Under the pieces are notes generated by a model. That model was not told the origin of the DNA, made no database searches, and saw only the letters and a list, made by a program, of their open reading frames with translations. The translations under genes and the position numbers were made by a program. Positions 5,308 to 63,189 of a stretch of 64,000 bases of DNA are shown here, piece by piece. The DNA is from an uncultured Eubacteriales bacterium (GTDB lineage: Bacteria > Bacillota > Clostridia > Oscillospirales > UMGS1783): contig CAKSHC010000002.1 in assembly GCA_934456365.1 (NCBI GenBank), positions 211,981-275,980 of the forward strand, given 5' to 3'. Within the stretch, counting starts at the first letter, position 1, and every line of letters starts with the position of its first letter.

Positions 5308-5913
5308 ATGAGAACGACAGAACAGCAGCACAACGAGCGCAAACGCGAGATCATGGAAAAGTGCTTTGCCTGCTATGCGGAAAACGGGCTGACGGGCACG
5401 GGCATCAAGGCTTTGGCAGCGGCCTGCGGCTGTACCACGGGAAATCTGTATTCCTATTTCAATAGCGTGGATGAGCTGATTTTGGAATCGACCGCCTACT
5501 GCATGGCAAAGGTGGAGGACGATTTCATGAAAAAAGCCCCGACCGATCCCCGGGACGCCATGCGCTTTATCGAGGAGATCCCCTATTGGACGGCACGGGA
5601 GCACGGCAAGAAATACCGGCTGATGTATCAGATTTACACCCATCCGAAATATATTGAATATGGCAAGAGGTTTTTCGAGGGCGTGAACGAGCGCTATACC
5701 GAGTATGCCAGGCAGCTGGAACCGAAGATCGGCATTCCCTATACGACGATCACGCCGCTGATCTTCATCTTTGTGCGCGCCTGCGTGCACTACGCCATGT
5801 TCGAGGACGAATACTATCTGAAAGCCCAGATGGAGGTTCTGAAGCAGGGCGTTGCCCTGTTTGCTGATAAATACCGCTCACAATATCTGAATCACGGAGG
5901 GGATGCGAAATGA
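5308..5913 (+). CDS. TetR/AcrR family transcriptional regulator
   Basis: N-terminal TetR HTH (GLTGTGIKALAAACGCTTGNLYSYF). Its stop overlaps the next ATG (ATGA at 5910-5913). Confidence 0.9.
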   Translation: MRTTEQQHNERKREIMEKCFACYAENGLTGTGIKALAAACGCTTGNLYSYFNSVDELILESTAYCMAKVEDDFMKKAPTDPRDAMRFIEEIPYWTAREHGKKYRLMYQIYTHPKYIEYGKRFFEGVNERYTEYARQLEPKIGIPYTTITPLIFIFVRACVHYAMFEDEYYLKAQMEVLKQGVALFADKYRSQYLNHGGDAK

Positions 5914-6992
5914 GAAGATGGCTGCGAGGGATCGTTTGTCTGCTTGTGATGTCGGTCGTGCTTTTCGCCGGGTGCAGCAGCACTCAGCAAACAAGCACGG
6001 CACAGGACCGGCCGGAGGTGCGCAACAACGGCACGGCGATCCAGTGGAAGTATGGCAGTGAGAGCGAGTGGCGCGACCTTGTGGCGCTTGCGGATCTTAT
6101 GGGCGCCTCGGGAGAAAAGGGCGCGGCCGGGATCGCCGGTAAAGACGGCATTGATGGCAGAAACGGCGTCGATGGCAAAAACGGCGCCGACGGCAAAACC
6201 GTTGAGGTGAGAAAAACCGATTCCAGCATTCAGTGGCGGGTTGAAGGCGGCGAGTGGCAGGATCTTGTGGCGCTCTCCGATCTTTCCGGCCCCTCCGGGA
6301 AAAGCGGCGCGGACGGAGCAAACGGCGCAAACGGCAAAACGCCGGAATTCCGGGTGAACGAAAACACCCTGCAATGGCGCTACATCGGCGATGAGATCTG
6401 GCTGAACCTGTATGATCTTTCCGCCTTGAAAGGGCTCGACGGCAAAGACGGCGCAGCCGGGAAAGACGGCGTAAACGGCAAAGACGGCACTGACGGCAAG
6501 GATGGAATCGACGGGCAAAATGGCAAGGACGGCAGCTGCCCAGGCTATTTTTACGCAGAGGGAAGCGTTTCGGCCTGGCCTCTTCAATACGGATCCCAAA
6601 AAATTTCTCTTTCGGAAGTCATCAACAAGGGCGGCCTGATCGCAGCCACACAGGACGGCGGCCTTACCCTGAAAAAGGGGCATACCTACCGCGTTATCAT
6701 AAGCGGCTCGCTCGGGGTGTGCTCGGGCGCTTCCGATGGCAGCGGCTATTATGGCATTCAGCTGACAGACAGCAGCGCCACCCCCGACTTCTGCCGGGAG
6801 ATCACCCGCATAAAACGGGACGGAGTGAGCGCAGCCATTCCCTACAGCACCGACTACCATTCCTTCCATTTCACCAGGCTGTACGACGCGTCCGCGCAGG
6901 ATATAACCCTGAAATTCCTGTTTGAGCAATCCGAATACGATACCTATATCGAACGCTTCAGAGGCACGATCACCATAACCGCCCTGGACTGA
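5910..6992 (+). CDS. Collagen-like repeat lipoprotein with C-terminal globular domain (surface protein P1)
   Basis: Lipobox LFAGC. Three IQW(K/R)Y..W.DL..L.DL modules each followed by Pro-poor GXY tracts (GKDGIDGRNGVDGKNGADG). About 150-aa beta-rich C-terminal domain. Confidence 0.85.
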   Translation: MRRWLRGIVCLLVMSVVLFAGCSSTQQTSTAQDRPEVRNNGTAIQWKYGSESEWRDLVALADLMGASGEKGAAGIAGKDGIDGRNGVDGKNGADGKTVEVRKTDSSIQWRVEGGEWQDLVALSDLSGPSGKSGADGANGANGKTPEFRVNENTLQWRYIGDEIWLNLYDLSALKGLDGKDGAAGKDGVNGKDGTDGKDGIDGQNGKDGSCPGYFYAEGSVSAWPLQYGSQKISLSEVINKGGLIAATQDGGLTLKKGHTYRVIISGSLGVCSGASDGSGYYGIQLTDSSATPDFCREITRIKRDGVSAAIPYSTDYHSFHFTRLYDASAQDITLKFLFEQSEYDTYIERFRGTITITALD

Positions 6993-7022
6993 GCCGATCC
7001 ACAGAAAACGGAGGTGCGGAAC

Positions 7023-8808
7023 ATGAAAAAACGAATCCTCGGCGTCCTGCTCGCCCTTTGTCTGGTGCTTGGAATGATGCCGACGGCCGTCTTTGCCGAA
7101 GGCGGCGCAAAGAAAAAGCATTACCCTCGGCACAACCGCTTTTGAGGGCGTTCAGAAAAGCAGCGTCCGGTTCGGCAGCTACAAGCAGTCGAGCGACGGC
7201 AGCGGCGGCTTTCAGACGGAGCCTGTCAGATGGCGCGTTCTGCGCCGCTCGGAGGGGCTGGTATGGCTCCTTTCGGATAAAATCCTGGATACCTATTATT
7301 ACCACAGCGAAGACGGATGGTATCATGATGTGTACTGGCAGGACACCCTGATGAAGCAATGGCTGAACAGCGAGCTTGAGGAGGGCGGATTTTCCGACGA
7401 GGCATTCAGCCCCGAGGAGTTTAAAGCCATTGCACTGAAAGAAGAACGGCTTGGCCGGGTGCTGCTCCTTTCCCGTGACGAAACGGAAGACCCCGAATGG
7501 TACGCAAACGGGCGCACCGCTCTTTTGGCAAAAGACAGCGATTACACCGCCTCCGGCGGAACGGTCGGGGCCCGCAACTTCGGGAAAAACGGCGCCTGGG
7601 TCCTTCGGGAAGACAAGGCCACGGCATACGTCTATTACGTGGATTCCGACGGGCAATACACCGACATTATGTACGGCGATTATTTTATCTTTGCCGTCCG
7701 CCCGTTTGTTTATATAGACGAAGCAAAGGTCCTCTTCACCTCTCCGGCCGTCGGCGGGAAAACGGCAATGGGGCTGACCGCTGTTTTCGGCTATGACGGA
7801 GAGGATTATAAGCTGACGGTGAAGGACGATGAGAGAAACGGATTTCTTGCAAAGCTGAGGTCTTATGCGGGAAACATCGTTCAGTTTGATTACGAGGGCG
7901 CCAAAACGGGCGGCAATGAGTATCTTTCCGCAATGGTGCTCAACGGCGAAACCGTGAAATACTACGGCAGGCTCAAAAACGTCGGCGCCGCGGGCGAGGA
8001 AAGCGGAACGCTGACGCTCACTCTTCCCGTAAGCGTGGATGCGGAAAGCGGCGATCGGCTGTTTGTTTTCAACGAGCAGTGCAACGGCGACGGCAAAACT
8101 GACTATGCAAGCAGTTTGTGCGAGCTTGCGCTGAAATCGGCCGGCGCCGCGGCGCCCCGACTTCGCATCCATCCCGAAACCGACGAGTGGGAGGTTTCCT
8201 ACGACGAGGGAACCACCTGGACCTCCCTCGGCGTGAAAGCGACCGGGATGAAAGGGGATAAGGGCGACGCCGGAGCGGACGGCGCGACCCCTCAGCTGAA
8301 AATCGGAAGCGACGCCCTCTGGTATGTTTCCCATGACGGCGGAACCACCTGGACCTCTCTCGGTGTGAAAGCCACGGGAGCGGACGGGAAAGACGGTCAG
8401 CCCGGCGCAGAGGGCAAGGACGGCACGACCCCGCAGCTGAAAATCGGAAGCGACGCCCTCTGGTACGTTTCCCACGACGGCGGAGAAACCTGGATCTCTC
8501 TTGGCGTGAAAGCCTTTGGGGATAAAGGCGAAAAGGGAGATCGCGGAGAAAAAGGCGACGAAGGCGACAAAGGAGATAACGGCGCAGACGGCCGGATCCC
8601 CTTCATCGGCGAAAACGGCAACTGGTGGGTCGGGGAAAAGGATACCGGCGTAAAAGCGTCGGCGGCCGCGGCTGCCGCAGGGGATTTGGCGGGCGCTGAA
8701 AAAAGCCCGCTGGCGATCCTCGCGATCGCCGTCGCAGGGGTTTCGCTTTTGATCAACATCGTTTTGATTTCGTATACTGTGCTGAAAAAGAAAAAGAGCC
8801 CTGCTTGA
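7023..8808 (+). pseudogene. Frameshifted DUF6273-like / collagen-like membrane-anchored surface protein (P2)
   Basis: Signal peptide MKKRILGVLLALCLVLGMMPTAVFA is in the frame of 7023 (stop at 7143-7145). The mature part is in the frame of 7093. The frames switch at AAAGAAAAAG (7109-7118). Confidence 0.8.
8155..8520 (+). repeat. Intragenic tandem repeat (about 141-nt period, 3 units) inside P2
   Basis: Units start near 8155, 8287 and 8428. The last two are near-identical and encode TPQLKIGSDALWYVSHDGG.TW.SLGVKA plus a GXY tract. Confidence 0.7.
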
Positions 8809-8919
8809 GTGCCTCACAAGCTTTTTTCCCGCTTATAGGGCATCGATCGGGCGCAAGGCGGAAAACGGCACAAGTTCAAGAACCGCTCTGAATTCCGTTT
8901 ATAAATGGAGGTATGGAAC

Positions 8920-11900
8920 ATGAAAGTACGAGTCCTCGGTATCCTGCTCACGCTTTGCCTGGCGGCGAGCGCCGTGGCGCCCGTGGTGAGCCATTTTGCC
9001 CCGGGCGCAGCAGCCTCGGGCGCATACGGCGCCCTGCTCGCGCCCGACACCACACCCCCTGCCGGATGGGAAGAAGATGCAAGCAACCCATACGGCACAA
9101 AGCAGGGGCAGCCCTTTGCCATCACCCCGTGGTATGAGCCGATTCTCTACGGCACCCGCAACGCGGAAAACGAAGCCGCAAAGGATCACACCAAGGTGTA
9201 CGACAAGCTGACCCTCGGAAAAAATATCATCGAGTCCCCGAGCGGTTCCTACAGCCTATCCTCGGTCGACAATGTCGCCTTCGCGGTCGGGACGGCTTAC
9301 GACCCGCTCGGCACGGGCCGAAACGACCACGCCATCTTTGTCGGCCTTTGCGATCTGGATAATACCAGGAACACGGCGAAGGTCTGCTTCTGGGTGCAGA
9401 ATCTTGTAACCGATCAGCGCTCCGATCTTCAGAAAATCGCCGACGCGCCGAAGTGGGCGTGCAAAACCGACTACGGCGAGCTGGAATATCAGGAATTCCG
9501 CCACTATTTCAATGTCACGGCGGGCGACTACGACGGCGACGGCAAGATGACCGCCGTGATCACCTATGCCGGCAGCGACGACCTCTGGGGGATCGCGGGC
9601 ACGGGGATCGCCGGTGAACCGAAGTTTTACATAAGATCCTTCGCGGGCGCGGATACCTACTTCGGCGGTTGGGAAACAACCGAATACGAAAGAGATCAGA
9701 TCACGAAATCCCTCGTTTCGCTTGACATCGACCGCGACGGCTGCGACGAGCTTGCGGTTGTCGCCGGCGCCGCCGAGCCGCTTCCTTACAGCACCGGTAT
9801 GGCGCCCGGGCTCCCCGGGGTTTCGGCGGATGCTTATGCCCTTTTTGTTTCAAAGCTGACGGTGTATAAAAACAACAGCGGAACCTTTAAGAAAATCTCG
9901 CAGAAAAAGCTGATGACCTTAAACCGCGAGGATGAGAAGGAAGACGGCAACCGATACTACGACCATATCCGCTTCCCGAACATCGCAGCGGCGGATATCA
10001 ACTGCGACGGATACGAAGAGATCGTCGTCGCGGGATACCACAACGAAGTAAAGGAAGAAAAGCTCTACGGTTTTCTCGCCAATTCGGATGCCGACGCTTC
10101 GAATATGGGCTACGCCGTATACTACAGCGAAACCGACGCGATCACAAACGTCCAGAAGATCGCGATGAGCCGCTACACCGCAGGCGGAACGGACAATAAC
10201 GGCGTGAAGCCCAAGCCCGCCATGACCGGCGTTGCCATCAACGGAAGGGGCACGCCCGAGCAGGTCTTCATCGCCGGCGGCCTTTATGAAGTGCAGGAAA
10301 ACGGCGCGCTCAATCTTCTGTGCGATACCGCGCGCGATAAAAACAAGAGCGCAAGATGGTGGTGGTATTATCAGGACGCCATCGCGGGCAACTTCGATCA
10401 TAACACAGAGGGGCGCGAGCAGGTGATCGCGCTTGCCGCCGAACGGCAGGACGGCACCAAAAATGCGCGCAAATTCGACCTCTTTACCGATGTATACTAT
10501 GGCGAGAACTTCGGCAGCGGGGCTTTATCGACCGCCGGCAAATATACGGTGACAGCCGAAAATGATGAATATTCCAAGCTGTGCCACGACGTCGACCTCG
10601 CCTGGGATATGCCGTATAACTGCATCCTGCTTGCGGGGGATGTGAACAAGGACGGTCTGTTTGCCCGCTATGAGGGCAAGGGCTACGGCTATTCCGACGC
10701 CCAGGTGCAGGCGGTGCTTCAGGCGGCTCCCTATTTTTCGGAGATCGGCGACTATGACCTCGACTTCTCCGACGGCTCCACCACCTATACCTTCTCCTCC
10801 GGCTATTCGGACACGAAATCCTCCTCGCACAATACCTCCTTCGGCGCGTCCATCGTTGTGCAGGGCGATCTGAAGGTGTGGCGATACGAGGCGACGCTCG
10901 GATATACCATGGACTTCACAAAAAGCACCGAGGACACCCTTTCAAAGGAATACAGCGCTTCCTTCAATGCCGGCGGCAACGATTCCGTGGTGCTCTACCG
11001 CGTGCCGGCAACAACCTATTACTACTCCGTCTATGACCCCCAAAAGGGCGATTTCGACCTGAGCGAGAAAAACACCATCGCCCTCATGATCCCCGGCCAG
11101 CCGGTCTATACCATGCTCGACCGCGAGTATTACGACGAGTTTGCAAAGCTGTATAACGAAACCTATAAAGAGGATATCGCGGCGGGGAAAGCAAAGGCTT
11201 TGCCGCTGCTGACCCGTCATGTCCTGCCGGAAAACGCCGAGGGTGATCCGTTTGCCTATTGGTCAAATCCCGGCTCTTCCGACGAATCGGTCACGCAATT
11301 TGAGTCGCTGAGCAAGCAGAAATACGAGCTCGGCTTCGGCGCGAGCAGCATCACAAACGACTGGACGATAACCTCCGAGCACGCCGAAGGCATTGAAATG
11401 GCGCACGGGTTCTCCGCCTCGATGAAAAGCACCTGGGGCACGGATGCCTTCAATATGGGATTTGCGATCGATTTCAGCTACAGCCATGCCAAAGGAACGG
11501 TCTATACCACAACCGAGAGCAGCGGCGCCAGCGGCACGGTCAATAATATCGACCGCCGCTCGCTTCTGTCCTCCTACGGAATCGGGTATGACGTTTCCGG
11601 CCAGTACGGCTTTACCTGGGATTTCGGTATGCGCACCTGGACGGCGGGCGATCAGAAGATCCCCGTGTTCGGCTATGTGCTGACCAATCTTCGCGCCGCC
11701 CCGCCCGTGCCGGAGCTGACCGGCGTGTCCGTAACGGATCGTCAAAGCGCCAAAATCACCTGGGAAGCGCCCGCGGCAGACAGCCGCCGCCCCTTTGCCG
11801 GGTATCATATCTGGATGCGCCTGGACGACGGCGAGTTTGAGCGCGTGACCGAAACGCCGCTTTCTCCGGAAATTCTTTCCTACACCTACCCCTCGCTTCA

Positions 11901-12729
11901 GGAGAACACCACCTATACCTTTGCGGTCACTTCCGTGAGCGGCAGCGGCATGGTGTCGGCGTTTTCCAACAGCAAAACCTTCTCAACCTTCTCGGGCGCC
12001 GACGGCCGGGAAATCGAATTCCGAAACAACGGCAGCACCATCCAGTGGCGCTATGCGGGTGAGGGAGACGACGCTTACCGCGATCTCGTTTCGCTCGCCG
12101 ATCTGACAGGCTCCGACGGCGCAGACGGAAAACAGATCGAGCTGCGGGTCTATAACGGGTTTGTGCAGTGGAAGTACAGCGGGGATTCCGCCTGGCGCGA
12201 TCTGATCGCCCTGTCGGATCTGAAGGGCGAAAAGGGCGACCCCGGACAGGACGGGAAAGACGGCATAACGCCGCGGCTGAAAATAGACGACGACAACTTC
12301 TGGTATGTTTCGTATGACGGCGGCCAAAGCTGGATTTCCCTTGGCGTAAAAGCCACCGGAGAAACCGGCGCGCCGGGGCAGGAGGGGAAAGACGGCAAGG
12401 ATGGGCGCGGAATCGCCAAAGCGGAGATCAACGCAAACGGCGAGCTTACCCTCACCTATACGGACGGCACAACGGTCAACCTCGGTAAGGTCGTCGGCGC
12501 GGACGGGAAAGACGGTCAGATCCCCTTTATCGGGGAAAACGGAAACTGGTGGATCGGGGAAAGGGATACCGGTGTGAAAGCCGCGATGGCTGCATCCGCA
12601 GGTTCCGGGGCCTTATCCGCCGCATCTCCCGCTCTGTGGATCATCGGTATCATCGCCGGACTGGCGCTGCTCGGCAATTTCGGCCTGATCCTGTATATCA
12701 TATTGAAAAAGAAAAAGGATATTGTCTAA
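8920..12729 (+). CDS. Giant surface protein P3: FG-GAP/VCBS repeats, unknown beta-rich domain, FN3, collagen-like modules, C-terminal TM anchor
   Basis: Signal peptide MKVRVLGILLTLCLAASA. DxDxDG motifs (DYDGDGKM, DIDRDGCDE, DINCDGYEE, DVNKDG). FN3-like segment at 11.70-11.99 kb. GXY tracts. IPFIGENGNWWIGERDTGVKA followed by TM and KKKK. Start moved to ATG 8920 (GGAGGT RBS). Confidence 0.85.
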   Translation: MKVRVLGILLTLCLAASAVAPVVSHFAPGAAASGAYGALLAPDTTPPAGWEEDASNPYGTKQGQPFAITPWYEPILYGTRNAENEAAKDHTKVYDKLTLGKNIIESPSGSYSLSSVDNVAFAVGTAYDPLGTGRNDHAIFVGLCDLDNTRNTAKVCFWVQNLVTDQRSDLQKIADAPKWACKTDYGELEYQEFRHYFNVTAGDYDGDGKMTAVITYAGSDDLWGIAGTGIAGEPKFYIRSFAGADTYFGGWETTEYERDQITKSLVSLDIDRDGCDELAVVAGAAEPLPYSTGMAPGLPGVSADAYALFVSKLTVYKNNSGTFKKISQKKLMTLNREDEKEDGNRYYDHIRFPNIAAADINCDGYEEIVVAGYHNEVKEEKLYGFLANSDADASNMGYAVYYSETDAITNVQKIAMSRYTAGGTDNNGVKPKPAMTGVAINGRGTPEQVFIAGGLYEVQENGALNLLCDTARDKNKSARWWWYYQDAIAGNFDHNTEGREQVIALAAERQDGTKNARKFDLFTDVYYGENFGSGALSTAGKYTVTAENDEYSKLCHDVDLAWDMPYNCILLAGDVNKDGLFARYEGKGYGYSDAQVQAVLQAAPYFSEIGDYDLDFSDGSTTYTFSSGYSDTKSSSHNTSFGASIVVQGDLKVWRYEATLGYTMDFTKSTEDTLSKEYSASFNAGGNDSVVLYRVPATTYYYSVYDPQKGDFDLSEKNTIALMIPGQPVYTMLDREYYDEFAKLYNETYKEDIAAGKAKALPLLTRHVLPENAEGDPFAYWSNPGSSDESVTQFESLSKQKYELGFGASSITNDWTITSEHAEGIEMAHGFSASMKSTWGTDAFNMGFAIDFSYSHAKGTVYTTTESSGASGTVNNIDRRSLLSSYGIGYDVSGQYGFTWDFGMRTWTAGDQKIPVFGYVLTNLRAAPPVPELTGVSVTDRQSAKITWEAPAADSRRPFAGYHIWMRLDDGEFERVTETPLSPEILSYTYPSLQENTTYTFAVTSVSGSGMVSAFSNSKTFSTFSGADGREIEFRNNGSTIQWRYAGEGDDAYRDLVSLADLTGSDGADGKQIELRVYNGFVQWKYSGDSAWRDLIALSDLKGEKGDPGQDGKDGITPRLKIDDDNFWYVSYDGGQSWISLGVKATGETGAPGQEGKDGKDGRGIAKAEINANGELTLTYTDGTTVNLGKVVGADGKDGQIPFIGENGNWWIGERDTGVKAAMAASAGSGALSAASPALWIIGIIAGLALLGNFGLILYIILKKKKDIV

Positions 12730-12750
12730 ATGCGAAAGGGAGAAAACGAG

Positions 12751-15700
12751 ATGAAGAAACGAACCATCAGTATCCTGCTCACCCTGTGTCTGGCGCTCGG
12801 CCTTGCGCCGATGGTCGTGTTTGCCGCCGGCAGCACGAAAGCCATCCAGCCCGGTGCGAGCGCTCAAAGCACATTGAAGGTCAGCCAAAGCAAGCTGTCC
12901 TTCGCGGGCCACGAATGGTGGGTGTTCAGCAAAAAGGACGGCGGGATCCTCACCCTGCTTGCGGCAAACCACGATTTCGGAGAGGTCGCGTTCCGCACGG
13001 GGGAGGCTGGCCCGTTTGAAAACGCAAGCCGCTACAGCGAGGACAACGGGTATTACGCCAACAACCCGTCGGGCATGGCGCATTGGCAAAAGCCCAACGA
13101 GTATGCGGGGAGCACCCTGCAGCAGAAAATGGTTTCCCTTGCAGGCGAAATCCCCGAAAAGGAGCAGGCGCTCATCCGCGAAAGGGATATCACCACCGGA
13201 ATCACCGGGCAGGCGGTCAGCGCACAGAAGCTCTGGGCCCTGTCGCACGACGACAGCATGTTCTTATCGAATAACGAGGGTCTATTCGCCGCGCAGTGGT
13301 GGACGCGTTCTTCCAATGAGGTCTATGGATACGGATCGTGGACGCTTCATCCCGACGGCAGAAGCGGCAGCGCCCTCAACGTGGACTACACGGCGGCCGT
13401 GCGGCCCGCTTTGGATCTGGATCTCTCCTCCGTTCTCTTCCTTTCCGCCGCCGACGGGAAATCCGGGAATCTGGCAGATCCCGTTCCCGAATACACCGGA
13501 GATGAATGGAAGCTGACGATCGAAGACAGCGAGCGCAGCGGCTTCATGGCAAAAACCGCCGCGGTCAGCGGCAGCGTTGTGACGGTCGGCTATACACAAG
13601 CCAAGGTCGGGAAAAACGAATATCTGTCCGCCATCATCTGCGATGCGGACGGAAGCATTTCCAACTACGGCCGCCTTTTGCAGCTGGACGGCATGCTCAA
13701 CCTGGCAATGGGCTGCGTAACGATCGATCTGTCCGGCATCGATATGACCGGAAAAACTCTGTATGTGTTCAACGAGCAGGATAACGGCAAGGGTATGACC
13801 GACTACGCCAGCTCGCTTCGGGAAGTGAAGCTGACGACCGAGATCGACGAGCAGTTCACCCTTACCCCCGGCGGCAGATACTATTTCGACCTCTCGGCAA
13901 TGGATCTTCCCGGCACGCTCAACGGCAACCTCCCGGACGGCACGCTGCACTACGTTCCTTTCACCTATGCGGGAACGGTCAATGCCTACGTGCTCAACAA
14001 AAATGCCGCCGGAGATAAAAAGGGTTCCGAAGCTGCGGGAGGCACGACCGACAGCAGCGCGCCTTTCGGCTACACCTACGACCATAGCCTCTTTATCGCG
14101 GATTATACCCTGACCCATACCGTGAGATGGGAAATCCTGCATGAAAACGACCTGATTTTCGGAAAAAGCTATACCGGCGGAAAGATCGACTACACGCTGC
14201 GCGCCCCCTCCGTCGGAAGCACCTACACCGGTTCCGGCGCCAGCGAGCGCGGCGTTCCGGCGAACAACGAATGGGATGCGATCCTGGATAAATTCCAGCA
14301 GGACTATATGGATAATGCAGGGTGCATCAAAAACTGGAAAGGCATGTATACCACAGGCCAGGATACCGTTTCCGGATATACCACCTACCGCATGATCCGC
14401 GGTGAAACCTCGGCCCGGTTCCTTTTCTACAACAATGGAGCGCCCTCCTCTCCCAAGCTCGGTTTCCGCCCGGTCCTTGAGCTGCCGGCCGATCTTCCTG
14501 CCGACAGCCTGAAGGCGGTGGAGCTGCAGCTGATGGCCGCCCTGCCCGGCGAGGATGGCACGGAGATCCGCATGGTCGTGAAAAAGGGCGAAAGCTTCTC
14601 CGCCCCCTCGGTCGAGGGGCTGCCCCGGCCGGACGGCGTTTCGGCGGATGCGCCTCTGTGGTGGGTCGACGAAAGCGGAAACTTCTATGAGCCCGGCGAT
14701 TCCGTGCCGGCAAGCGTTGCAAAGCTTTCCCTTACCGACGGCTATGACGTCATCTATCTTCCCGGCGCAGCCGGCACGGGGGAGGCCGTGACCGATACCA
14801 AGCCCTATGACGGTTTCCTCACCCTGCGCGGCACCCTCTTCACCCGCGAAGGGTACAGCCAGACCGGCTGGACGACGATCGACGGCGGCGAAAAGGACTA
14901 CAATTTCGAAGATATCTATCAGGCAAACGCGGCGCTGACCCTCTATCCCGTGTGGACCCCGAATCAATACACCGTCACCTTCGAAGCCAACGGCGGCACG
15001 GTGGATCAGAAAACCATGACCGCCACCTACGGAGAGGCATTGGGGCAGATGCCCATCCCGGAATATCCCGGTTATGTTTTCGACGGCTGGTCTGACAGTG
15101 TGTGGGGCGGCAGGCTATATAGCGACAAAGACGGCCGCGGCACCGTTGCATACGACAAAGCCGGGGACTGCACCCTGTATGCAATGTGGGTAGAGCCCCC
15201 TAGACGAACGGCCACATTTGATCCGAACGGCGGTACGCTGACCGACGAGGCAACCTTTGAACAGAAGCAGGGCGGGCAGATCCGGGAGCCCAGAGATCCC
15301 GTAAGAAAGGGCTATATTTTCTTCCGCTGGTTTCAGGATGCCGCCTGCACAAAGGCGTGGTACTTCGGCGATCCGATCATGGAGGATATAACGCTGTACG
15401 CCGGATGGGTGAGCAAAGAGTACACGGTCTCCTTTGATACCGTCGGCGGCTCCGCTGTCGCCGATAAAACAAACGCGAAGTGGGACGAACCGGTGCTTGA
15501 CGGCGTGGAAGCCCCTGTTCGAAACACCTATGAATTCATCGGATGGACCTGCCAGGGCAAGCCCGTAACGGCCGAAACGGTTTACGCCGATCTCGTGGAC
15601 GACGACAGCATAGAAGGCATTACCCTGACGGCTCAGTGGCGGGATATCGAGAAGCCGACCGGCGAAATCTCCGTCGGCACAAACCGCTGGAACGAGTTTC

Positions 15701-16641
15701 TCAACGACATCACCTTCGGCCTCTTCTTCAAGGAAACCCAGACCGTTACCATCCAGGCAGCCGACAACAGCGGCGAGCCGATCAGGATCAAATACCTGCT
15801 CGCCGACAGAAAAATGACCGAAACCGAGCTTGCGGATGCGAGCTTCACCGAGTATCAAGGCTCCTTTACCATCGATCCCGACCGCGAGTATGTGGTATAT
15901 GCGCTGCTGGTCGACGCGGCGGGAAACAGCCGGTATATCTGCTCGGCGGGTATGGTGCTGGACGGCACCGCCCCCGTGATCCTCGGCGTTGAAAACGGTG
16001 GAGTCTATTGCGAAGCGCAGACCGTTACCATCGACGAGCGGTATGGGTATACCGTCACCGTAAACGGCGCGCCCGTCACACTCGACGAAAACAACAGCTT
16101 TGTCCTCTCTCCGGCAGCCGACAAGCAGGAAATCGTGGTTATCGACGAAGCGGGCAACTCCGCCCAAAAGACCGTAACGGTCAACGACGGGCACACCTTC
16201 GGCGAATGGGAGCCGGGCGACGGCACGCATACCCGCCGCTGCACGGTGGAGGGCTGCGGCGCGTCGGAAACCGATGCCTGCTCGGTCGGAAAAGCCACCT
16301 GCGTCGAAGAAGCGGCGTGCGAAGTCTGCGGAAAGGTTTACGGCGAGCTCGACGCAAACAACCACTCCAGCCTCAGGCACATCGAGGCCAAGGCGGCGAC
16401 CAAGGACACCGAGGGCAATATCGAGTATTGGATCTGCGAAGGCTGCGGTAAGATTTATCGCGATGCCGCCGCAAAGAAAGAGATCCAAAAGTCCGACACC
16501 GTAACGCCCAAACTGCCGGACGGCTCGGGATCTCCCCAGACCGGCGACCATAGCCCCGCGCTGTGGATCGCGCTGCTCTTCCTCAGCAGCGGCGCTGCGA
16601 TCGCGGCGGCTGTCCGCAAAAAGAAAAAGCACAATAAATAA
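12751..16641 (+). CDS. Sortase-anchored surface protein P4: DUF6273-like N-terminus, Listeria-Bacteroides repeats, Ig-like and Cys-rich modules
   Basis: Signal peptide MKKRTISILLTLCLALGLAPMVVFA. Segment homologous to P2 (WKLTIEDSERSGF...YVFNEQDNGKGMTDYASSL). Four G(Y/T)xFxGW repeats. C-terminal SPQTG signal. Start moved to ATG 12751. Confidence 0.85.
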   Translation: MKKRTISILLTLCLALGLAPMVVFAAGSTKAIQPGASAQSTLKVSQSKLSFAGHEWWVFSKKDGGILTLLAANHDFGEVAFRTGEAGPFENASRYSEDNGYYANNPSGMAHWQKPNEYAGSTLQQKMVSLAGEIPEKEQALIRERDITTGITGQAVSAQKLWALSHDDSMFLSNNEGLFAAQWWTRSSNEVYGYGSWTLHPDGRSGSALNVDYTAAVRPALDLDLSSVLFLSAADGKSGNLADPVPEYTGDEWKLTIEDSERSGFMAKTAAVSGSVVTVGYTQAKVGKNEYLSAIICDADGSISNYGRLLQLDGMLNLAMGCVTIDLSGIDMTGKTLYVFNEQDNGKGMTDYASSLREVKLTTEIDEQFTLTPGGRYYFDLSAMDLPGTLNGNLPDGTLHYVPFTYAGTVNAYVLNKNAAGDKKGSEAAGGTTDSSAPFGYTYDHSLFIADYTLTHTVRWEILHENDLIFGKSYTGGKIDYTLRAPSVGSTYTGSGASERGVPANNEWDAILDKFQQDYMDNAGCIKNWKGMYTTGQDTVSGYTTYRMIRGETSARFLFYNNGAPSSPKLGFRPVLELPADLPADSLKAVELQLMAALPGEDGTEIRMVVKKGESFSAPSVEGLPRPDGVSADAPLWWVDESGNFYEPGDSVPASVAKLSLTDGYDVIYLPGAAGTGEAVTDTKPYDGFLTLRGTLFTREGYSQTGWTTIDGGEKDYNFEDIYQANAALTLYPVWTPNQYTVTFEANGGTVDQKTMTATYGEALGQMPIPEYPGYVFDGWSDSVWGGRLYSDKDGRGTVAYDKAGDCTLYAMWVEPPRRTATFDPNGGTLTDEATFEQKQGGQIREPRDPVRKGYIFFRWFQDAACTKAWYFGDPIMEDITLYAGWVSKEYTVSFDTVGGSAVADKTNAKWDEPVLDGVEAPVRNTYEFIGWTCQGKPVTAETVYADLVDDDSIEGITLTAQWRDIEKPTGEISVGTNRWNEFLNDITFGLFFKETQTVTIQAADNSGEPIRIKYLLADRKMTETELADASFTEYQGSFTIDPDREYVVYALLVDAAGNSRYICSAGMVLDGTAPVILGVENGGVYCEAQTVTIDERYGYTVTVNGAPVTLDENNSFVLSPAADKQEIVVIDEAGNSAQKTVTVNDGHTFGEWEPGDGTHTRRCTVEGCGASETDACSVGKATCVEEAACEVCGKVYGELDANNHSSLRHIEAKAATKDTEGNIEYWICEGCGKIYRDAAAKKEIQKSDTVTPKLPDGSGSPQTGDHSPALWIALLFLSSGAAIAAAVRKKKKHNK
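16531..16641 (+). other. Cell-wall sorting signal (SPQTG + hydrophobic helix + RKKKKHNK)
   Basis: TCT CCC CAG ACC GGC at 16531-16545, then ALWIALLFLSSGAAIAAAV and a basic tail. Matches the (S/P)PxTG sortase motif class known from clostridia. Confidence 0.7.
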
Positions 16642-20950: not shown

Positions 20951-23068
20951 ATGAAAAAACGCTTCGTGGCCTTCCTCGCGCTGATCGCGCTTTTGCTGCC
21001 CGTCGGCTGCTCCGGCGCGCAGAGCTCGTCTTTGCCGCTGAGCGACGGCTGGATCGTCCGCGCCGAGCGCGGCGAAACCGACGGCTGGCAAAACGGGTTT
21101 TCCGAAAAGGATGAGAATCTGGACGGCGCCGAATGGGTTTGGTATTCGCGCCGCTTTTCTGCCTCTCTGAAAAGCGGCGGGCGGGTTTCGCTCGATCTGT
21201 GCGACCTCGGCCGCGAAGCCACCGTGTGGCTCGGCGGCGAGGAGATCGCCTCGCTGCCCGAGGGCGGCTCGGCCTGTCTGGATGTGACCGAGAAGATCCA
21301 CCGCAGCGGCGAGGGCGTGCTGGTCATCCGCGCCCGCGAGGCCTGCCGGGTCGACGCCACCGTGCTCTCGGTGCGCCCCGAGGTCTACCTCACCGCCCTT
21401 TCGGCCACAGGCCAGGACGGCGCTCTTTCGGTTACTGCCGGGGTGCGCCATACCGGCAAAAAGGAGGAAACCGTGCGCGCCGAATGGTCGCTGACTGATG
21501 ACCGCTCGGGTCAGATCCTCGCCTCCGGCTCGGAGGAATGGCTCCTTTCCCCCGGCGAGAGCGAGCAAACCTTCTCCCTTTCGCCGCAGGGCGCGCTCGA
21601 ATGGAAGCCGGAGGACCCGGCCTGTTCCACCCTGCTCCTTTCGATCACCGCCGCCCGGGAAACCGATTCCAAGGCCCTCGGCGCCGCCTTTGCCAAGCCC
21701 TCCTTTGATGGGGCGGCCTTCTGCCTCGGCGGGGAAAAGCTCTTTCTGCGCTCGGCGGTGATCCCGCGCGATGTGCTTTGCGAAACCGAAAAAATGCGCG
21801 CCTTTGTGGATTATGTGCAGATCCTCGGCTTCAATGCCGTTTACCCCGCCTCGGGCGCGCCCACGAGCGCCCTTTGCGACTACGCCCGCCTCAAGGGCCT
21901 GCTGGTGGATGACGGATCCGGCCTGACCGCCGGGCTCACCCGCGTCCCGCTCCCGGCCGGCGCGTCGCTGACCGGCACGGGCAGCGAATTTTCTCTCCCG
22001 GCGCAGATGCAGGTCGAGCGCGTCAATGAATGGTTTGCCAAGTGCTCGCTGGATCGGCTCTACACCACCCCCGAGGAGGCCTACCGCGCCGCGCAGAGAT
22101 CGGTCGTTTCCCGCGCCGCGGACACCCTTTCCGCCATCCTGCTGGAGGAACCCGAAACCGGGATCCGCTATGCCGGGCCGATCGCCATGCAGCCCGAGGG
22201 GATGGAGGAGATCTTCCCCGAAGCGCTCTCCGATCTGCGCTATGTGATTTCTCTTCCCGATTGTCTGGTGGCCGGCGAGGCCTTCCATCTTTCGCTTTCG
22301 CTGCTCAACCGCGGCGTCCTTTGGGACGGTGATTTTTCGGCCACGCTGAAGATCACCGGCGAGCGGGGCGTGCTCTTTGAGCGCACGGTGGCGGTGGAAA
22401 ATGTGGAGGGCGCCCAGCTTCTGATGGATCAGACCGCCCTTCCGGCGCTGGCCGCGGCCGGAGAATATACCGTTTCCATCGAAACCACCGGCGGCATCTA
22501 CCCGACCTGCCGCACCAAAACTCTTACCGTTTTGCCGCAGAGCTCCCTGGAAGCCACGCTCTACCAGCAGGGCCTCTCGGTGGGAGCGCGCACAGCCCTT
22601 GCCTCGGCCGGAGCCCGTCTGCTCCCGCTCGACGCCGCCTCCCTCTCCGAGGGCGAAACGGCGGTCGTGGCCGGAAAGGTGAGCGATTCGCTTTTGCTGG
22701 CGGTGCAGAAGGGCGCGTCGCTGGTGCTGATCGATCCGGACGGGGAAAATAAGCTTCCCTTCGACGGGCAGCTGATCGGCGGGATGAGCGAGGCGGCTTT
22801 GCTTCCCGGCCTCTCCTGCGGTCTTCCCGAAGGGGTGATTTCCGGATCCTTCGGCGGGCTGAGCCTGCGCGCCGGATGGCGCGGCGAGGGAGATTGCCTC
22901 TGCACCGGGCTCGGCTTCGACGCCGACGGGTTCCACTACGGCTCGGTCGTCACCGAATTTTCGTATGGCTCCGGTAAGCTGATTCTGATCACGGCGGATC
23001 TCCGCCGCTCCACCACCGAGGTCGGCAGCGCTTTGCTGACCGCCGCGATTGCGAGGGCTTTGGCATGA
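20951..23068 (+). CDS. Lipoprotein with GH2-like N-terminal sugar-binding domain (possibly non-catalytic)
   Basis: Lipobox LLPVGC. Jelly-roll-like segment WVWYSRRFSASL...ATVWLGGEEI. I do not see a clear NE acid/base motif. Confidence 0.7.
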   Translation: MKKRFVAFLALIALLLPVGCSGAQSSSLPLSDGWIVRAERGETDGWQNGFSEKDENLDGAEWVWYSRRFSASLKSGGRVSLDLCDLGREATVWLGGEEIASLPEGGSACLDVTEKIHRSGEGVLVIRAREACRVDATVLSVRPEVYLTALSATGQDGALSVTAGVRHTGKKEETVRAEWSLTDDRSGQILASGSEEWLLSPGESEQTFSLSPQGALEWKPEDPACSTLLLSITAARETDSKALGAAFAKPSFDGAAFCLGGEKLFLRSAVIPRDVLCETEKMRAFVDYVQILGFNAVYPASGAPTSALCDYARLKGLLVDDGSGLTAGLTRVPLPAGASLTGTGSEFSLPAQMQVERVNEWFAKCSLDRLYTTPEEAYRAAQRSVVSRAADTLSAILLEEPETGIRYAGPIAMQPEGMEEIFPEALSDLRYVISLPDCLVAGEAFHLSLSLLNRGVLWDGDFSATLKITGERGVLFERTVAVENVEGAQLLMDQTALPALAAAGEYTVSIETTGGIYPTCRTKTLTVLPQSSLEATLYQQGLSVGARTALASAGARLLPLDAASLSEGETAVVAGKVSDSLLLAVQKGASLVLIDPDGENKLPFDGQLIGGMSEAALLPGLSCGLPEGVISGSFGGLSLRAGWRGEGDCLCTGLGFDADGFHYGSVVTEFSYGSGKLILITADLRRSTTEVGSALLTAAIARALA

Positions 23069-40801: not shown

Positions 40802-41603
40802 TTTCCCAGCGCACCTTTTCGGGCGAATCCACCCGAATGTAGGCATATCGCGCGTCCGGCGAGGATTGATATTGCTCGCACCGCTCCCTCATCCGTTCCT
40901 TGACCCGCCGGCACAGATCCGCCTTGGCCTGCGCCGCGGGAAGCTCGGGATCGGGATAGAAGGGCCCGTCGTAAACCACCATCCGCCGGGTCCGCCCCGA
41001 GCGGGTTTTCCGATAAATCGTCGTGCGCGCAAAGCAGGGCGCGTTCAGACGCACGGGATAGGCGAAGGAAACGGCCGGGAAATCCCGGATGGCGGAATAT
41101 TTCGGCCAGATGTGCGCCTCGGGGAAAATCGAGATCGCCCCGCCGCGCTCGTAAATGCGCCGGATCTCCGCCTCAAAGGGGCGGAAGGAGGCAAGAGCCT
41201 GCGGCGTGGGAATCGCCCCTAAAAAGCGCAGCAGAAGCTTCATCCCCGGTATGCTCAGCGCGTCCGGCCCCACCACCACCGAGCACGGCCGCGGAAAAGC
41301 GGCCGCCGGCGGGGAAATGGCGTCGGTCAGATAAGAGGTGTGGTTGCTGTAGAGAAAATATCCCTTTTTCCGATCGCGCCGCCGCAGCAGCACCCGCCGG
41401 TTCTTCACCGGCACAAAAAGCAAAAGCCGCACCTCCACAACCACCAGAAGCAAAACCAGATAGTAAACGATCGGCTTGAAGAAACGGTAGAATATGTTTT
41501 TCGGCTGATAATCGTAGTCCGCAGGGGTGGGCTTGGTGTGGATATCCGTCGCCGCAAAATCGTCGCTTCTCTCGTCGAAATAGTAGTAACGGCGCTCTTT
41601 CAT
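40779..41603 (-). CDS. Putative lysophospholipid acyltransferase (PlsC/LPLAT-like)
   Basis: N-terminal TM helix, NHTSYLTD (non-canonical HX5D) and an IFPEAHIW block. Confidence 0.6.
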   Translation of the reverse strand: MKERRYYYFDERSDDFAATDIHTKPTPADYDYQPKNIFYRFFKPIVYYLVLLLVVVEVRLLLFVPVKNRRVLLRRRDRKKGYFLYSNHTSYLTDAISPPAAAFPRPCSVVVGPDALSIPGMKLLLRFLGAIPTPQALASFRPFEAEIRRIYERGGAISIFPEAHIWPKYSAIRDFPAVSFAYPVRLNAPCFARTTIYRKTRSGRTRRMVVYDGPFYPDPELPAAQAKADLCRRVKERMRERCEQYQSSPDARYAYIRVDSPEKVRWEIKNRQIR

Positions 41604-42733
41604 CGATCGCCGCCGATCTGATCCAGAAGCATTTGCTCCATCCGATCCATGCAGGCTTCCTGATCAAAGGCCCGCCCTTCCCGGAGATAGAGAGCGCGCA
41701 GCTTTTCCGTTTCCTCGGGATGCTCAATAAAATAATCGAGCTTTCGGGCCAGATCGCGGCTGTCCCCCACCCGGAAAAGGCACCGGGGATCGAGCGCAAA
41801 GGCCTTGGTTGCGCAGCGCGGCGAATCGGCGATTAGGGGCACCAGTCCGCATCGGATGGCCTCCAGGCAGGCGATCGCCTCGATCTCCACCTCGGCCGGA
41901 TGGCAATAAAGATCGCAGGAGCGGATCAGCTCCACCAGCTCGTCGCGCGAGTAAAACCCGATGATCGGCGGATGCGGCAGGCGCGCCCCCATCCGGCGGA
42001 TCTGCTTTTCGCGCGGCCCCTGCCCGGCAAAATGCAGCTGAATGCGGTCGCGGTAGCGCGAGCGGTTCACCGCCCGCAAAAGCACCTTGTGCGATTTCTC
42101 GTTGGAAATCCGCCCGGTGAAAAGCACATGATAAAGCCCGTCCCCGAAGGGCTTGCCCTCGCCGGGGGTGAACCGGTCGTTGACCCCGTTGGAGATCACA
42201 TATCCGTTGGTCCTGCGCCCCACCTCTTTTTCAAACACATCCCGGATAAACTGGGTTGGGTAGTGGATCGCGTCGGCTCGGCAGAAAAGATTCCTGTCGT
42301 ACCAGCGGTAGATGATGTGGTTGATCGGGTTCCAGTGCAGAAGCCCGAGATGCACGGTGAAATTCTCGGCCTGCGCGTGGAAGCCCGCCGTGAGCGGCTT
42401 GCCCAGGCGCTTGCAGAGCTTCGAGGCCCGCCGCGCAATGAAAAGCGGAACCATAATGTGCACCACATCCGCCCCCCGGATCGCCTCGGTCAGCAGAGCC
42501 TCGTCGTAGCGCGGCAGCACCACATTGTTTTTGCGGAAAAACCAGTCCACCACCGGCCCCATGTTGCTGCGCGGCAGCACCACATACCCCGGCTCGCCCC
42601 GGCGGTTCTCGTCCGGGCAGACAACCGTCACCTCATGCCCCTTTTTGCGCAGATGATGAATCAGATTGTATGCCGCCACCGAGGTCCCGTTGTTGGGCTC
42701 GCCGAGCACCTCGCAAAGAATGGTAACCTTCAT
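41600..42733 (-). CDS. Glycosyltransferase family 4 (glycolipid synthase-like)
   Basis: GT-B/GT4 pattern (NGTSVAAYNL..., HPAEVEIEAIACLEAIRCGLVP). 4-nt overlap with the acyltransferase gene. Confidence 0.85.
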   Translation of the reverse strand: MKVTILCEVLGEPNNGTSVAAYNLIHHLRKKGHEVTVVCPDENRRGEPGYVVLPRSNMGPVVDWFFRKNNVVLPRYDEALLTEAIRGADVVHIMVPLFIARRASKLCKRLGKPLTAGFHAQAENFTVHLGLLHWNPINHIIYRWYDRNLFCRADAIHYPTQFIRDVFEKEVGRRTNGYVISNGVNDRFTPGEGKPFGDGLYHVLFTGRISNEKSHKVLLRAVNRSRYRDRIQLHFAGQGPREKQIRRMGARLPHPPIIGFYSRDELVELIRSCDLYCHPAEVEIEAIACLEAIRCGLVPLIADSPRCATKAFALDPRCLFRVGDSRDLARKLDYFIEHPEETEKLRALYLREGRAFDQEACMDRMEQMLLDQIGGDR

Positions 42734-42742
42734 AATTCTCCT

Positions 42743-43006
42743 TTATCCGGCCGATCCGACCGAGGCCTTTTTCGGCAAAATATCCACCAGATCGCTCAGC
42801 CCGCACCGCAAAACCATGCAGATCTTGGCCAGCGTCTCCAAATTCACAGCCTCCTGTCGCCCCATCTTGGCGATCACCGAGGGGCTCAGGTGGGCCTGAC
42901 GGCTCAGATCCTTCTTTTTCATCCGCCGCGTTTTCAAAAGCCGCCACAGCTTGTCGTAGCAATATTCGCAGGGCGCTTCCTCCAAAACCGTGTTTTTTGT
43001 GCGCAT
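42743..43006 (-). CDS. Small XRE-family HTH regulator
   Basis: KKKDLSRQAHLSPSVIAKMGRQEAVNLETLAKICMVLRC. Start at ATG 43006 behind AAAGGAG. Confidence 0.8.
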   Translation of the reverse strand: MRTKNTVLEEAPCEYCYDKLWRLLKTRRMKKKDLSRQAHLSPSVIAKMGRQEAVNLETLAKICMVLRCGLSDLVDILPKKASVGSAG

Positions 43007-43156
43007 ATTCGACTCCTTTCGACCAACCGGCCAAATAGGAGCATACCACACCCTGTTCATATTTTCAACATAATTTTCACGAAACAGAAATTTTCTTTTT
43101 TCCTTGCCAAGCGCGCCCGCCTTGCAGTAAAATGGAAAAGGAAAGGGGAGAGGGGT

Positions 43157-61573: not shown

Positions 61574-61646
61574 TTGACATTTAGTGCTTGTCAATATCGA
61601 AAGTATATGCTATAATGCCTGTTGATATGACATTCACTGAATGTTA
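61574..61646 (+). promoter_or_regulatory. Promoter/operator cassette copy 2 (TGACA-N9-TGTCA / TGACA-N9-TGTTA)
   Basis: TTGTCA (61588-61593), 17 nt, TGcTATAAT (61608-61616). Operators at 61575-61593 and 61628-61646. Divergent from the XRE gene. Confidence 0.6.
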
Positions 61647-61668
61647 AAAACGTTGTGTGAGGTGGATT

Positions 61669-62490
61669 ATGAAATACTGTGTGCATTGCGGAAAAGAGCT
61701 TTTGGATGAAGCCGTGATCTGTCCGGGGTGCGGCTGCGAAACCGGATACCGAAGACTGGCTCCGGCTCGAAAAGCCGATTATCGGGTAGAGGAGCTTTCC
61801 CGAAAGATCCGGACCTATGGGATCTTCTGGATCATCCTTGCCTCCTTTCAGATTCTCTTTTTTCTGATCCAGTTTGCGCTGTCGCAGCTCAGCCCGGTGC
61901 TTTTTCGGCTCAGGCAGTCTTCGCAGTCCTTTTGGTTTGTCGGGATCATCGGCGTTCTGAATCTGATTTCCGCCATCAAGGATGTGCGCTACAGCGGGAA
62001 GATCCAAAGAGATCCGTCCGGCATCGTCCGGAAATTTGAGCCGCTCGCGGGAGCGATCCTCGAATTGATCTGGAATGCGGGGGTCGCCCTGGGCGGCCTG
62101 ATCGACGGCGGCCTTCTCGGCGGGCTGATCTGCGGGGTCGGCGCGGGCCTGTCGATCTATTATCTGGCTGGGATCCGCGGCTTTGTCATGCGCAATCGGA
62201 AAGTCTATGAGGAATACGACCGCAAAAAAGCGATCGCCCGCGCGGCTCGCGATCCCCATGCCGGCGATATCCTGCCCCACAGCAAGTGGCTCGAGGTCCT
62301 CCTGGCAGACGGCCTGATCACCCAGGAGGAATACGATCAGATAAAAGCAAACCCCGCCCCGCAGTACGCCGGGACAGACACCATAAACTACCGGGAAACG
62401 CTCCAGTCCCTCAAGGAAATGTACCAGGCCGCCGAGATCACCGAAAGCTACTATTGCCAGAAGCGCGCCGCTATTTTGCGCCAGCTCTGA
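61669..62490 (+). CDS. Zinc-ribbon membrane protein with C-terminal SHOCT-like repeats
   Basis: MKYCVHCGKELLDEAVICPGCG, about 4 TM helices, LLADGLITQEEYDQIK and EITESYYCQKRAAIL. Start at ATG 61669 behind GAGGTGG. Confidence 0.75.
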   Translation: MKYCVHCGKELLDEAVICPGCGCETGYRRLAPARKADYRVEELSRKIRTYGIFWIILASFQILFFLIQFALSQLSPVLFRLRQSSQSFWFVGIIGVLNLISAIKDVRYSGKIQRDPSGIVRKFEPLAGAILELIWNAGVALGGLIDGGLLGGLICGVGAGLSIYYLAGIRGFVMRNRKVYEEYDRKKAIARAARDPHAGDILPHSKWLEVLLADGLITQEEYDQIKANPAPQYAGTDTINYRETLQSLKEMYQAAEITESYYCQKRAAILRQL

Positions 62491-62619
62491 CCCAACCCTC
62501 CGCACCCCCGGGCGCGGAGGGCTTTCTTTCTCTTGCATTTCCCGCGCGCTCCTTTTATAATGAAAGAAAGAGAAGCCTCCACCCGGCGGCTTTCCATTTC
62601 TTGCAAAGGAGAATGTGTC

Positions 62620-63180: not shown

Positions 63181-63189
63181 TTTCCAAAG

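Follow-up and report, generated by a model that had tools for sequence, protein, structure and literature searches.

The window analyzed here, a 64,000-nucleotide stretch of contig CAKSHC010000002.1 from an uncultured Eubacteriales bacterium (assembly GCA_934456365.1), encodes a 1274-amino-acid (aa) surface protein, P3. Its parts follow in the order signal peptide, FG-GAP beta-propeller, an unassigned domain, FN3, a DUF4988 region with short G-X-Y runs, and a transmembrane helix with KKKK (Table 1). Pfam bounds within P3 were aa 269-375 for FG-GAP, 937-1016 for fn3, and 1068-1193 for DUF4988. The unassigned domain is conserved and new, is predicted to project two long beta-hairpins, and is tentatively read here as a membrane-inserting module. 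Domain numbering is used below, to which 584 is added to obtain P3 numbering.

A first-pass annotation of the sequence had called P3 a giant protein with a collagen stalk, and had marked a stretch of about 340 aa at 10670-11700, which corresponds to P3 aa ~589-932, as carrying no recognizable motif. The latter was borne out, as Pfam finds nothing between aa ~380 and 937, and neither a phmmer search of all PDB chains nor an NCBIfam search returned anything for aa 585-932. At 1274 aa, P3 is large rather than giant, and the supposed collagen stalk amounts to just 5-6 G-X-Y triplets per run inside a DUF4988-type region, with no long collagen helix. The propeller contains DxDxDG-type loops (GDYDGDG, DIDRDGCDE, DINCDGYEE, and GDVNKDG) and is all-beta in the AlphaFold2 (AF2) model of the full head.

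Table 1. Positions in the window of the P3 gene and of the parts of its product
Feature	Position	Strand	Basis
P3 gene, 1274-aa surface protein	8905..12729	+	ORF list, translation, Pfam
FG-GAP beta-propeller region, aa ~100-584	9202..10656	+	Pfam FG-GAP and FG-GAP_3
Unassigned conserved domain, aa 585-932 (domain numbering 1-348)	10657..11700	+	cluster search, AF2
N-terminal motif Y-x-Y-S-D-P-x-V-x-A-V-L-Q-A-A-P-Y-F, aa 594-611	10684..10737	+	alignment A1 consensus
Long beta-hairpin 1, aa 625-689; strands are domain 41-72 and 75-105	10777..10971	+	DSSP of AF2 model, column profile
Amphipathic distal part of hairpin 1, aa 644-671	10834..10917	+	column statistics, shuffle test, PDB profile matches
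Middle alpha/beta base, aa 690-814	10972..11346	+	AF2 secondary structure, pLDDT 90-97
Loop motif E-G-(N/D)-P-x-x-Y, aa 779-785	11239..11259	+	alignment A1
Long beta-hairpin 2, aa 815-880; strands are domain 231-261 and 265-296	11347..11544	+	DSSP of AF2 model
Amphipathic distal part of hairpin 2, aa 834-861	11404..11487	+	column statistics, shuffle test, PDB profile matches
Domain C-terminal part, aa 881-932	11545..11700	+	AF2 model pLDDT 94-97, conserved columns
FN3 domain, aa 937-1016, last part of conserved head	11713..11952	+	Pfam fn3, E 1.4e-7
DUF4988-type region with short collagen-like G-X-Y runs, variable stalk	12106..12483	+	Pfam DUF4988, E 7e-11
C-terminal transmembrane helix, aa 1244-1267, then KKKK; surface anchor	12634..12717	+	read from translation

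To define the family, aa 585-932 was used as the query of an exhaustive HMMER search against 1.84 billion cluster representatives (clusters at 50% identity). This search returned 291 clusters at E<=1e-3, 202 of them at E<=1e-10, and the matches were nearly all full-length (query 1-348) at identities of 27-41%. The segment, about 345 aa long, is a genuine domain, conserved and new. It sits at about residues 600-950 of homologues that are 1100-2800 aa long, and it lies between an FG-GAP propeller and FN3 across the family. In 94 full-length homologues, the N-terminal ~1020 aa (signal peptide, propeller, domain, and FN3) was conserved as one head. P3 belongs to this head family as we define it, with a full-length match, FG-GAP on the N-terminal side, and FN3 on the C-terminal side. 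No significant Pfam match was observed inside the domain in any of 44 diverse members. Word-indexed homologue searches with the domain, with the alignment of these members (alignment A1), or with a parasporin-2 fragment gave near-identical fragments at most and otherwise nothing, and tblastn of the parasporin-2 fragment against plasmids gave no match. Family members are named "hypothetical protein" or "Ig-like domain-containing protein" in the databases, where they derive from Lachnospiraceae and Eubacteriaceae metagenome-assembled genomes. Orthologues of 90-95% identity were present in about 15 human-gut Oscillospirales/"Eubacteriales" genomes, among them Clostridium sp. CAG:964 and, as a cultured isolate with an orthologue of 93% identity, Eubacterium sp. 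OM08-24. The family is thus undescribed in Pfam, NCBIfam, and PDB, and no account of this architecture (FG-GAP with aerolysin or pore formation) was found in the literature; the concept of a recognition domain followed by an insertion-hairpin module is already known.

The C-terminal parts of the homologues vary and include CWB2, Flg_new_2, YDG, Big_3, CHB_HEX, CFSR/collagen-like, and ChW modules. In the 94 full-length members, the tails carry recognizable surface anchors of several types. A transmembrane helix with a basic tail was detected by hydrophobicity in 32 of the 94, and the transmembrane-KKKK type of tail seen in P3 recurs in many homologues; the other types are SLH-type TRAE motifs, CWB2 and ChW repeats, dockerin-like repeats, and sortase-like motifs. 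Across members P0016-P0163, the ~1000-aa head was joined to at least six anchoring solutions (transmembrane helix plus KKKK, SLH, CWB2, ChW, dockerin-like, and sortase-like), indicating that modules have been shuffled extensively around one conserved functional head. Gut and rumen Clostridia display a conserved ~1000-aa head atop variable stalks and anchors.

Next, the structure of the domain was predicted by AF2 from alignment A1, which comprises 44 homologues at 26-36% identity. The model had a mean predicted local distance difference test score (pLDDT) of 87 and a predicted template modeling score of 0.77. It consists of a short N-terminal hairpin, long hairpin 1, an alpha/beta region (106-230), long hairpin 2, two short helices, and a third hairpin. 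The alpha/beta region is compact, with short strands, two helices (D-x-Y-N-x-F-V-x-x-Y-N), and one long loop that bears E-G-N/D-P-x-x-Y. Residues R115, P117, Y121, Y123, Y159, N160, Y166, and N167 of this region are near-invariant in alignment A1, as P25 is invariant near the N-terminus. In the loop motif, which a regular expression found in 70 of 102 members, G196, P198, and Y201 are invariant or near-invariant. After the two short helices, the C-terminal part forms the third, shorter hairpin with Y-G-F-x-W-x-F-G-x-W and P-V-x-G-Y. From this base project the two long hairpins, of ~65 residues each, whose four strands are 31-32 residues long. The base was modeled at pLDDT 90-97 and the hairpin bases at above 90. 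The distal halves of the hairpins reached pLDDT 60-78 in the domain alone and stayed below 50 in a model of the full head (aa 30-1030), where they were not packed on the propeller or FN3, indicating that their hydrophobic faces have no predicted intramolecular partner. The alignment of hairpin 1 with hairpin 2 is weak (hhalign probability 54%, P 1.3e-4), and outside the hairpins the two halves do not align, which is compatible with duplication or with shared constraints.

The sequence of the hairpins was then analyzed by column in the 44-sequence alignment. The two peptides that the first-pass annotation had quoted as alternating between polar and hydrophobic residues around Ser/Thr-rich turns are both present exactly (aa 626-659, nt 10780-10881; aa 836-877, nt 11410-11535). 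The Ser/Thr richness was confirmed, with Ser plus Thr at 26-36% in 50-aa windows over both regions compared with 4-18% in the propeller. The alternation also held up. The 348-aa segment contains six non-overlapping 13-residue windows of strong hydrophobic/polar alternation, a count reached in only 3 of 2000 shuffles, and the pattern is conserved by column in the homologues. The two predicted hairpins have four distal strands, and it is exactly these that the four top windows cover. At distal positions 60-72/75-87 and 252-262/265-275, columns that are 0.6-0.98 hydrophobic take turns with columns of Ser, Gly, or charged residues, so that each strand of both hairpins has an amphipathic distal stretch of 11-13 residues. 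Hydrophobic positions pair with hydrophobic positions across the strands in both hairpins, including seven such pairs in hairpin 1, which also has the invariant cross-strand pair Gly65-Gly82. Aromatic or His residues mark the inner boundary (F62, Y83, and W/F87 in hairpin 1; H250/F252 and Y275 in hairpin 2). The tips are Gly-rich, and that of hairpin 2 varies in length through indels in alignment A1; its distal part reads H-G-F-x-F/A-x-hydrophobic, then the tip, then F-x-M-G-x-x-I-x-F-x-Y-x-H. In the proximal ~20 residues of each strand, both faces are Ser/Thr/charged, a distribution that a sandwich core would not allow. A ~30 A neck that is polar on both faces and a ~40 A foot with one greasy face are unlike a sandwich domain. 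A polar neck with an amphipathic foot is the look of the stems of aerolysin, lysenin, alpha-haemolysin, and anthrax protective antigen (PA).

It is conceivable that these hairpins are a product of the prediction, so that a compact beta-sandwich or a part-disordered Ser/Thr-rich linker was over-extended by AF2 from a shallow alignment. The alignments held just 44-46 sequences, and the reduced distal pLDDT values of the two models fit such an origin. We nevertheless consider it improbable, as the alternation and the pairing of hydrophobic positions across strands persist, along with conserved Gly and aromatic residues, in about 100 sequences of <40% identity, the segment has no low-complexity expansions, the hairpin bases are confidently modeled, and no sandwich family was matched.

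Profiles of the domain and of each hairpin were compared with PDB, covering 177,635 distinct sequences. The top two matches of the whole-domain profile were parasporin-2 (E 0.028) and the haemolytic lectin LSL (E 0.072), both aerolysin-type and both non-significant. Besides liver FABP (E 0.004), the hairpin-2 profile matched solely aerolysin-type toxins, namely Mpp75Aa (7ml9), Sip (8hx3), Cry78Aa (7y78/7y79), and Bin (5g37/5foy). For the hairpin-1 profile, 9 of 11 matches were LSL, six Clostridium perfringens enterotoxin (CPE) sequences, monalysin, and a Bin-like toxin; the others were the outer-membrane barrel NspA and one carbohydrate-binding module. The matched toxin segments were the insertion hairpins, at residues 70-121 of CPE and 129-184 of Mpp75Aa. 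The former contains TM1 of CPE, aa 80-106 (PMC4810218), and the latter overlaps the hairpin of Mpp75Aa that is disabled by the K125C/N153C lock (PMC8504720). Among sub-threshold Pfam matches, ETX_MTX2 was the second most recurrent (4 of 44 members, best E 0.023), and Toxin_10 appeared in one member (E 2). As far as sequence profiles can tell, the pattern-level resemblance is almost exclusive to the stems of toxins that form beta-barrel pores (beta-PFTs) across PDB.

However, reversed-sequence profiles, used as controls, retrieved the same class (anthrax PA 281-333, Mpp75Aa, monalysin, aerolysin, and parasporin-2), with E-values 5-10 times weaker, and also brought back the iLBP family. Because the reversed controls match the same toxin class, the similarity is a pattern of composition and periodicity and gives no evidence of descent. 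The resemblance to beta-PFT stems is thus a physicochemical signature at the level of the class, with a polar stem and an amphipathic tip, and does not prove homology. The case of PA is similar. Its 2beta2-2beta3 stem resembles the P3 hairpins in its length, polar neck, and amphipathic tip, but residues 281-333 were matched by the reversed hairpin-1 profile alone, indicating pattern rather than homology, and no Binary_toxB match was obtained.

For hairpin 2, the betaB-betaD region of liver FABP and, in the reversed search, CRBP2 scored above every toxin. Both are soluble beta-clam proteins, indicating that soluble folds can carry the same pattern; the FABP match may be merely a shared G-x-F-x-F…G…G pattern. 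These scores, the best in PDB for hairpin 2 in both orientations, together with the non-significance and direction-independence of the toxin matches, favor a non-lytic explanation, in which the domain is structural or adhesive and its hairpins are rigid beta-ribbon arms that act without a membrane. Here the greasy tip faces would pack together, as a 2+2 sandwich or a clam-like foot, or on a neighboring molecule or a ligand, and the domain would serve as a spacer, in dimerization or lattice contact, or as a hydrophobic-ligand site beside the propeller. The family has the classic adhesin layout of N-terminal head, stalk, and anchor, its hosts are commensals, and the Gly65-Gly82 pair with many invariant residues suggests tight, specific packing over a loose stem. 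Gram-positive surface adhesins with FN3, Flg_new, Big, SLH, CWB2, or ChW modules share this overall layout and anchor repertoire, but the central domain of P3 matches none of their known head or stalk folds. No Ig-like, CnaB, G5, thioester, or other adhesin family was found by Pfam (44 members), PDB profiles, or Foldseek, and a thioester is excluded since the P3 domain has no cysteine. Furthermore, ~20 residues per strand that are polar on both faces are unusual for a stable soluble fold, and AF2 places the tips confidently on nothing, even with the propeller and FN3 present. A non-lytic role is the main alternative to the membrane-inserting reading and only slightly less likely than it.

The first-pass annotation had left the segment between a pore-toxin hairpin and a beta-sandwich adhesin domain. 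The toxin-like side of this choice survives as a signature at class level, with non-significant matches, whereas the adhesin side gained no support: the predicted strands, at ~30 residues, are not sandwich-sized, and the confident match to a common adhesin fold that was to count against the toxin idea did not appear in any search.

Structure comparison by Foldseek gave no global fold match, with template modeling (TM) scores of <=0.17 in PDB and <=0.19 in BFVD. Against PDB, 24 matches had E<1e-3, and all were secretin chains (InvG, GspD, PilQ, pIV, and BfpB), aligned over ~337 of 348 residues at a probability of up to 0.96, with TM 0.09-0.17 and a root-mean-square deviation of 18-24 A; the best had E 2.5e-6 and TM 0.12. 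Among the viral structures of BFVD, the search returned only junk-like long-hairpin models, the top one at E 4.5e-9, which shows that models with long hairpins receive inflated Foldseek E-values. In PDB, Sip, Cry51Aa2, parasporin-2, and aerolysin followed at ranks 28-50 (E 0.011-0.33, TM 0.10-0.12), and extended hairpins defeat rigid superposition. The aerolysin-type structural core consists of two pairs of antiparallel strands plus the insertion hairpin (PMC8504720). Ig-like, CnaB, integrin-thigh, MACPF/CDC, and gasdermin folds were absent from the top 50 Foldseek matches.

The secretin matches raise the possibility that the domain oligomerizes constitutively, each subunit adding four strands to a large beta-barrel ring in the envelope of the producer itself, where it would serve, for example, as a conduit or as a cell-wall/S-layer scaffold. 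Secretins (InvG, GspD, PilQ, and phage pIV), which gave the best local 3Di matches, do have four long strands per subunit and form self-inserting oligomeric beta-barrels. However, they are outer-membrane proteins of diderms, whereas the P3 domain belongs to an extracellular head of monoderm Clostridia, which lack an outer membrane, and lies distally in that head, >300 residues from the anchor. There is no sequence similarity, and Pfam Secretin (PF00263) was not matched in the 44 members, even at E<=10. Given these points, the low TM scores, and the inflated E-values, a secretin-type ring is very unlikely.

We also compared the domain with the families to which insertion hairpins usually belong. 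At curated thresholds, the Pfam models Aerolysin, ETX_MTX2, Toxin_10, and Clenterotox gave 0 matches in the P3 domain, and AF2 predicts two equivalent long hairpins instead of the one insertion hairpin per protomer of that superfamily. The third feature, an amphipathic hairpin flanked by Ser/Thr-rich stretches, is present twice over and family-wide. Since this feature alone is found, membership in the aerolysin/ETX-MTX2 superfamily is not established, and the domain looks like a beta-PFT stem module. MACPF membership, which the first-pass annotation had likewise proposed to check, is no more demonstrable. The signature Y/W-G-T/S-H-F/Y-x6-G-G occurs in 0 of 102 members, and no Pfam MACPF or Thiol_cytolysin match was obtained at E<=10. 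The sequence H-G-F-H-F-x6-G-G of some members was considered as a MACPF candidate and rejected, as the strict signature is matched by 0 and a relaxed one by 4 of 102 members, at a different topological position. MACPF/CDC/gasdermin proteins resemble the P3 domain in having two hairpins (four strands) per protomer with ~125 residues, including helices, between them; in contrast, the hairpin regions of their soluble form are helical or disordered, and the P3 family has no Pfam or Foldseek match to them.

From the conserved domain, its hairpin pattern, and its class-level similarity to toxin stems, we infer oligomerization, membrane insertion, and a target membrane. Our tentative reading, put forward as a possibility that falls somewhat short of probable, is that the domain, tethered to the cell and dependent on contact, inserts into membranes or forms pores and supplies four strands per protomer. 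The propeller would bind a ligand on the target surface, after which several heads would associate. Both hairpins of each head, contributing four strands, would then join a common beta-barrel, in which the amphipathic feet would span the lipid bilayer and the polar necks would form the extramembrane wall. Also counted in its favor are the secretin matches, to oligomeric channels with four long strands per subunit, the aerolysin-type toxins further down the Foldseek list, the distal hairpins left unpacked in the full-head model, and the parallel with hybrids of a lectin and a pore module. With regard to the first step, a Foldseek search with the full head linked its propeller to two lectins, the UmbA4 subunit 9oee (E 1.8e-8, TMt 0.32) and the AOL fucose lectin 5eo7 (TMt 0.49); 9oee is UmbA4 of the Streptomyces umbrella toxins, bound to teichuronic acid. 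The P3 propeller may thus recognize glycans, which these structural matches suggest as a lead only. A more specific proposal, which we regard as rather unlikely, is that commensal gut Clostridia display an unrecognized family of tethered beta-barrel pore formers, in which a lectin-like propeller does the targeting and the new domain, with a fold unrelated to known beta-PFT families, drives two aerolysin-like stems, with four strands per protomer, into the target membrane. Such a protein would be an adhesin that forms pores on contact.

Several results weigh against a membrane-inserting module. All toxin sequence matches are non-significant (E 0.028-10) and recur with reversed profiles, a soluble FABP outscores them for hairpin 2, and the structure search, with its inflated E-values, yielded no global fold. 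The distal hairpin halves are modeled with moderate confidence in the domain alone and with low confidence in the full head. The domain has two hairpins, unlike aerolysin-type toxins. The 94 full-length homologues are anchored to the cell surface rather than being free toxins, and the hosts are commensal Oscillospirales and Lachnospiraceae. In addition, no conserved accessory or partner gene was found near three distant members, whose neighborhoods are unrelated.

As compared with known pore formers, the aerolysin-type toxins (Mpp75Aa 7ML9, parasporin-2 2ZTB, LSL 1W3A, CPE, monalysin 4MJT, Cry78Aa, and BinAB) share with the P3 domain the amphipathic hairpin flanked by Ser/Thr-rich strands, and they are similarly elongated, beta-rich, and Cys-poor. 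In contrast, the P3 domain has no significant sequence or fold match to them, carries two stem-like hairpins instead of one, and has different base motifs (AVLQAAPYF, EGNPxxY, and YGFxWxFGxW). Those toxins are secreted protoxins of 30-50 kDa, whereas the P3 domain is embedded in a cell-anchored multidomain protein. Hybrids of a lectin and a pore module, such as LSL and the Tpp/Toxin_10 proteins with an N-terminal beta-trefoil, follow the same logic of a carbohydrate-type recognition domain and then an insertion-hairpin module. However, the recognition part of P3 is an FG-GAP propeller, lectin-like by Foldseek only, rather than a beta-trefoil, and the protein continues into FN3, stalk, and anchor.

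If the membrane-inserting reading is true, the domain would define a new beta-pore-former family with two stems per protomer, propeller-fused and cell-tethered, and present in hundreds of clusters in dominant human-gut and rumen Clostridia. Commensals would thereby gain contact-dependent permeabilization of host, protist, fungal, or bacterial membranes, and the range of architectures for beta-barrel pore formation would be wider. Even if it is non-lytic, this is a widespread unannotated fold with long thin beta-arms at the business end of abundant surface proteins, and the domain deserves a family definition and a solved structure.

P3 is the third of four co-directional surface-protein genes at 5910-16641, whose products are a 360-aa lipoprotein with collagen repeats, a 571-aa DUF6273/DUF4988 protein, P3, and a 1303-aa DUF6273/Flg_new protein. 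The four share collagen-like G-X-Y/DUF4988 modules and tails of the transmembrane-KKKK or sortase type. The stop codon of P3 (12727-12729) is directly followed by the next ATG at 12730, suggesting one operon. The cluster is surrounded by housekeeping chromosomal genes (MutS2, Ffh, FeoB, a GH2 enzyme, and phosphotransferase-system and branched-chain amino-acid transporters).

The 1303-aa neighbor (12730-16641) has an SPQTGD motif right before its hydrophobic tail and KKKK, which resembles a clostridial (S/P)PxTG sortase signal. A Cys-rich extracellular stretch with CxxC pairs (…CTVEGCG…CEVCGK…CEGCGK…) lies just upstream of this motif. The lipoprotein (5910-6992) has the lipobox LFAGC, collagen triple-helix repeats, and a C-terminal globular part of ~150 aa without a Pfam or PDB sequence match; in its layout it is reminiscent of collagen-like proteins of the exosporium or surface that bear a globular head.

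Elsewhere in the window, the ORFs at 20951-23068 (705 aa, plus strand) and 61591-63315 (574 aa, minus strand) had no Pfam match at E<=1e-5. The ORF at 41900-44497 (865 aa) is probably over-extended, because MatE matches only from aa 438 on and the N-terminal half overlaps a 377-aa minus-strand ORF at 41600-42733. Among the distant homologues, P0018 (1276 aa, L020 8001-13158) overlaps the start of the next ORF, which encodes a 456-aa protein with Flg_new and SLH. Since its cluster contains longer members (1762 aa), a frameshift or a fault in the assembly has probably split P0018. A 7TMR-DISM two-component system is located divergently upstream of P0018.

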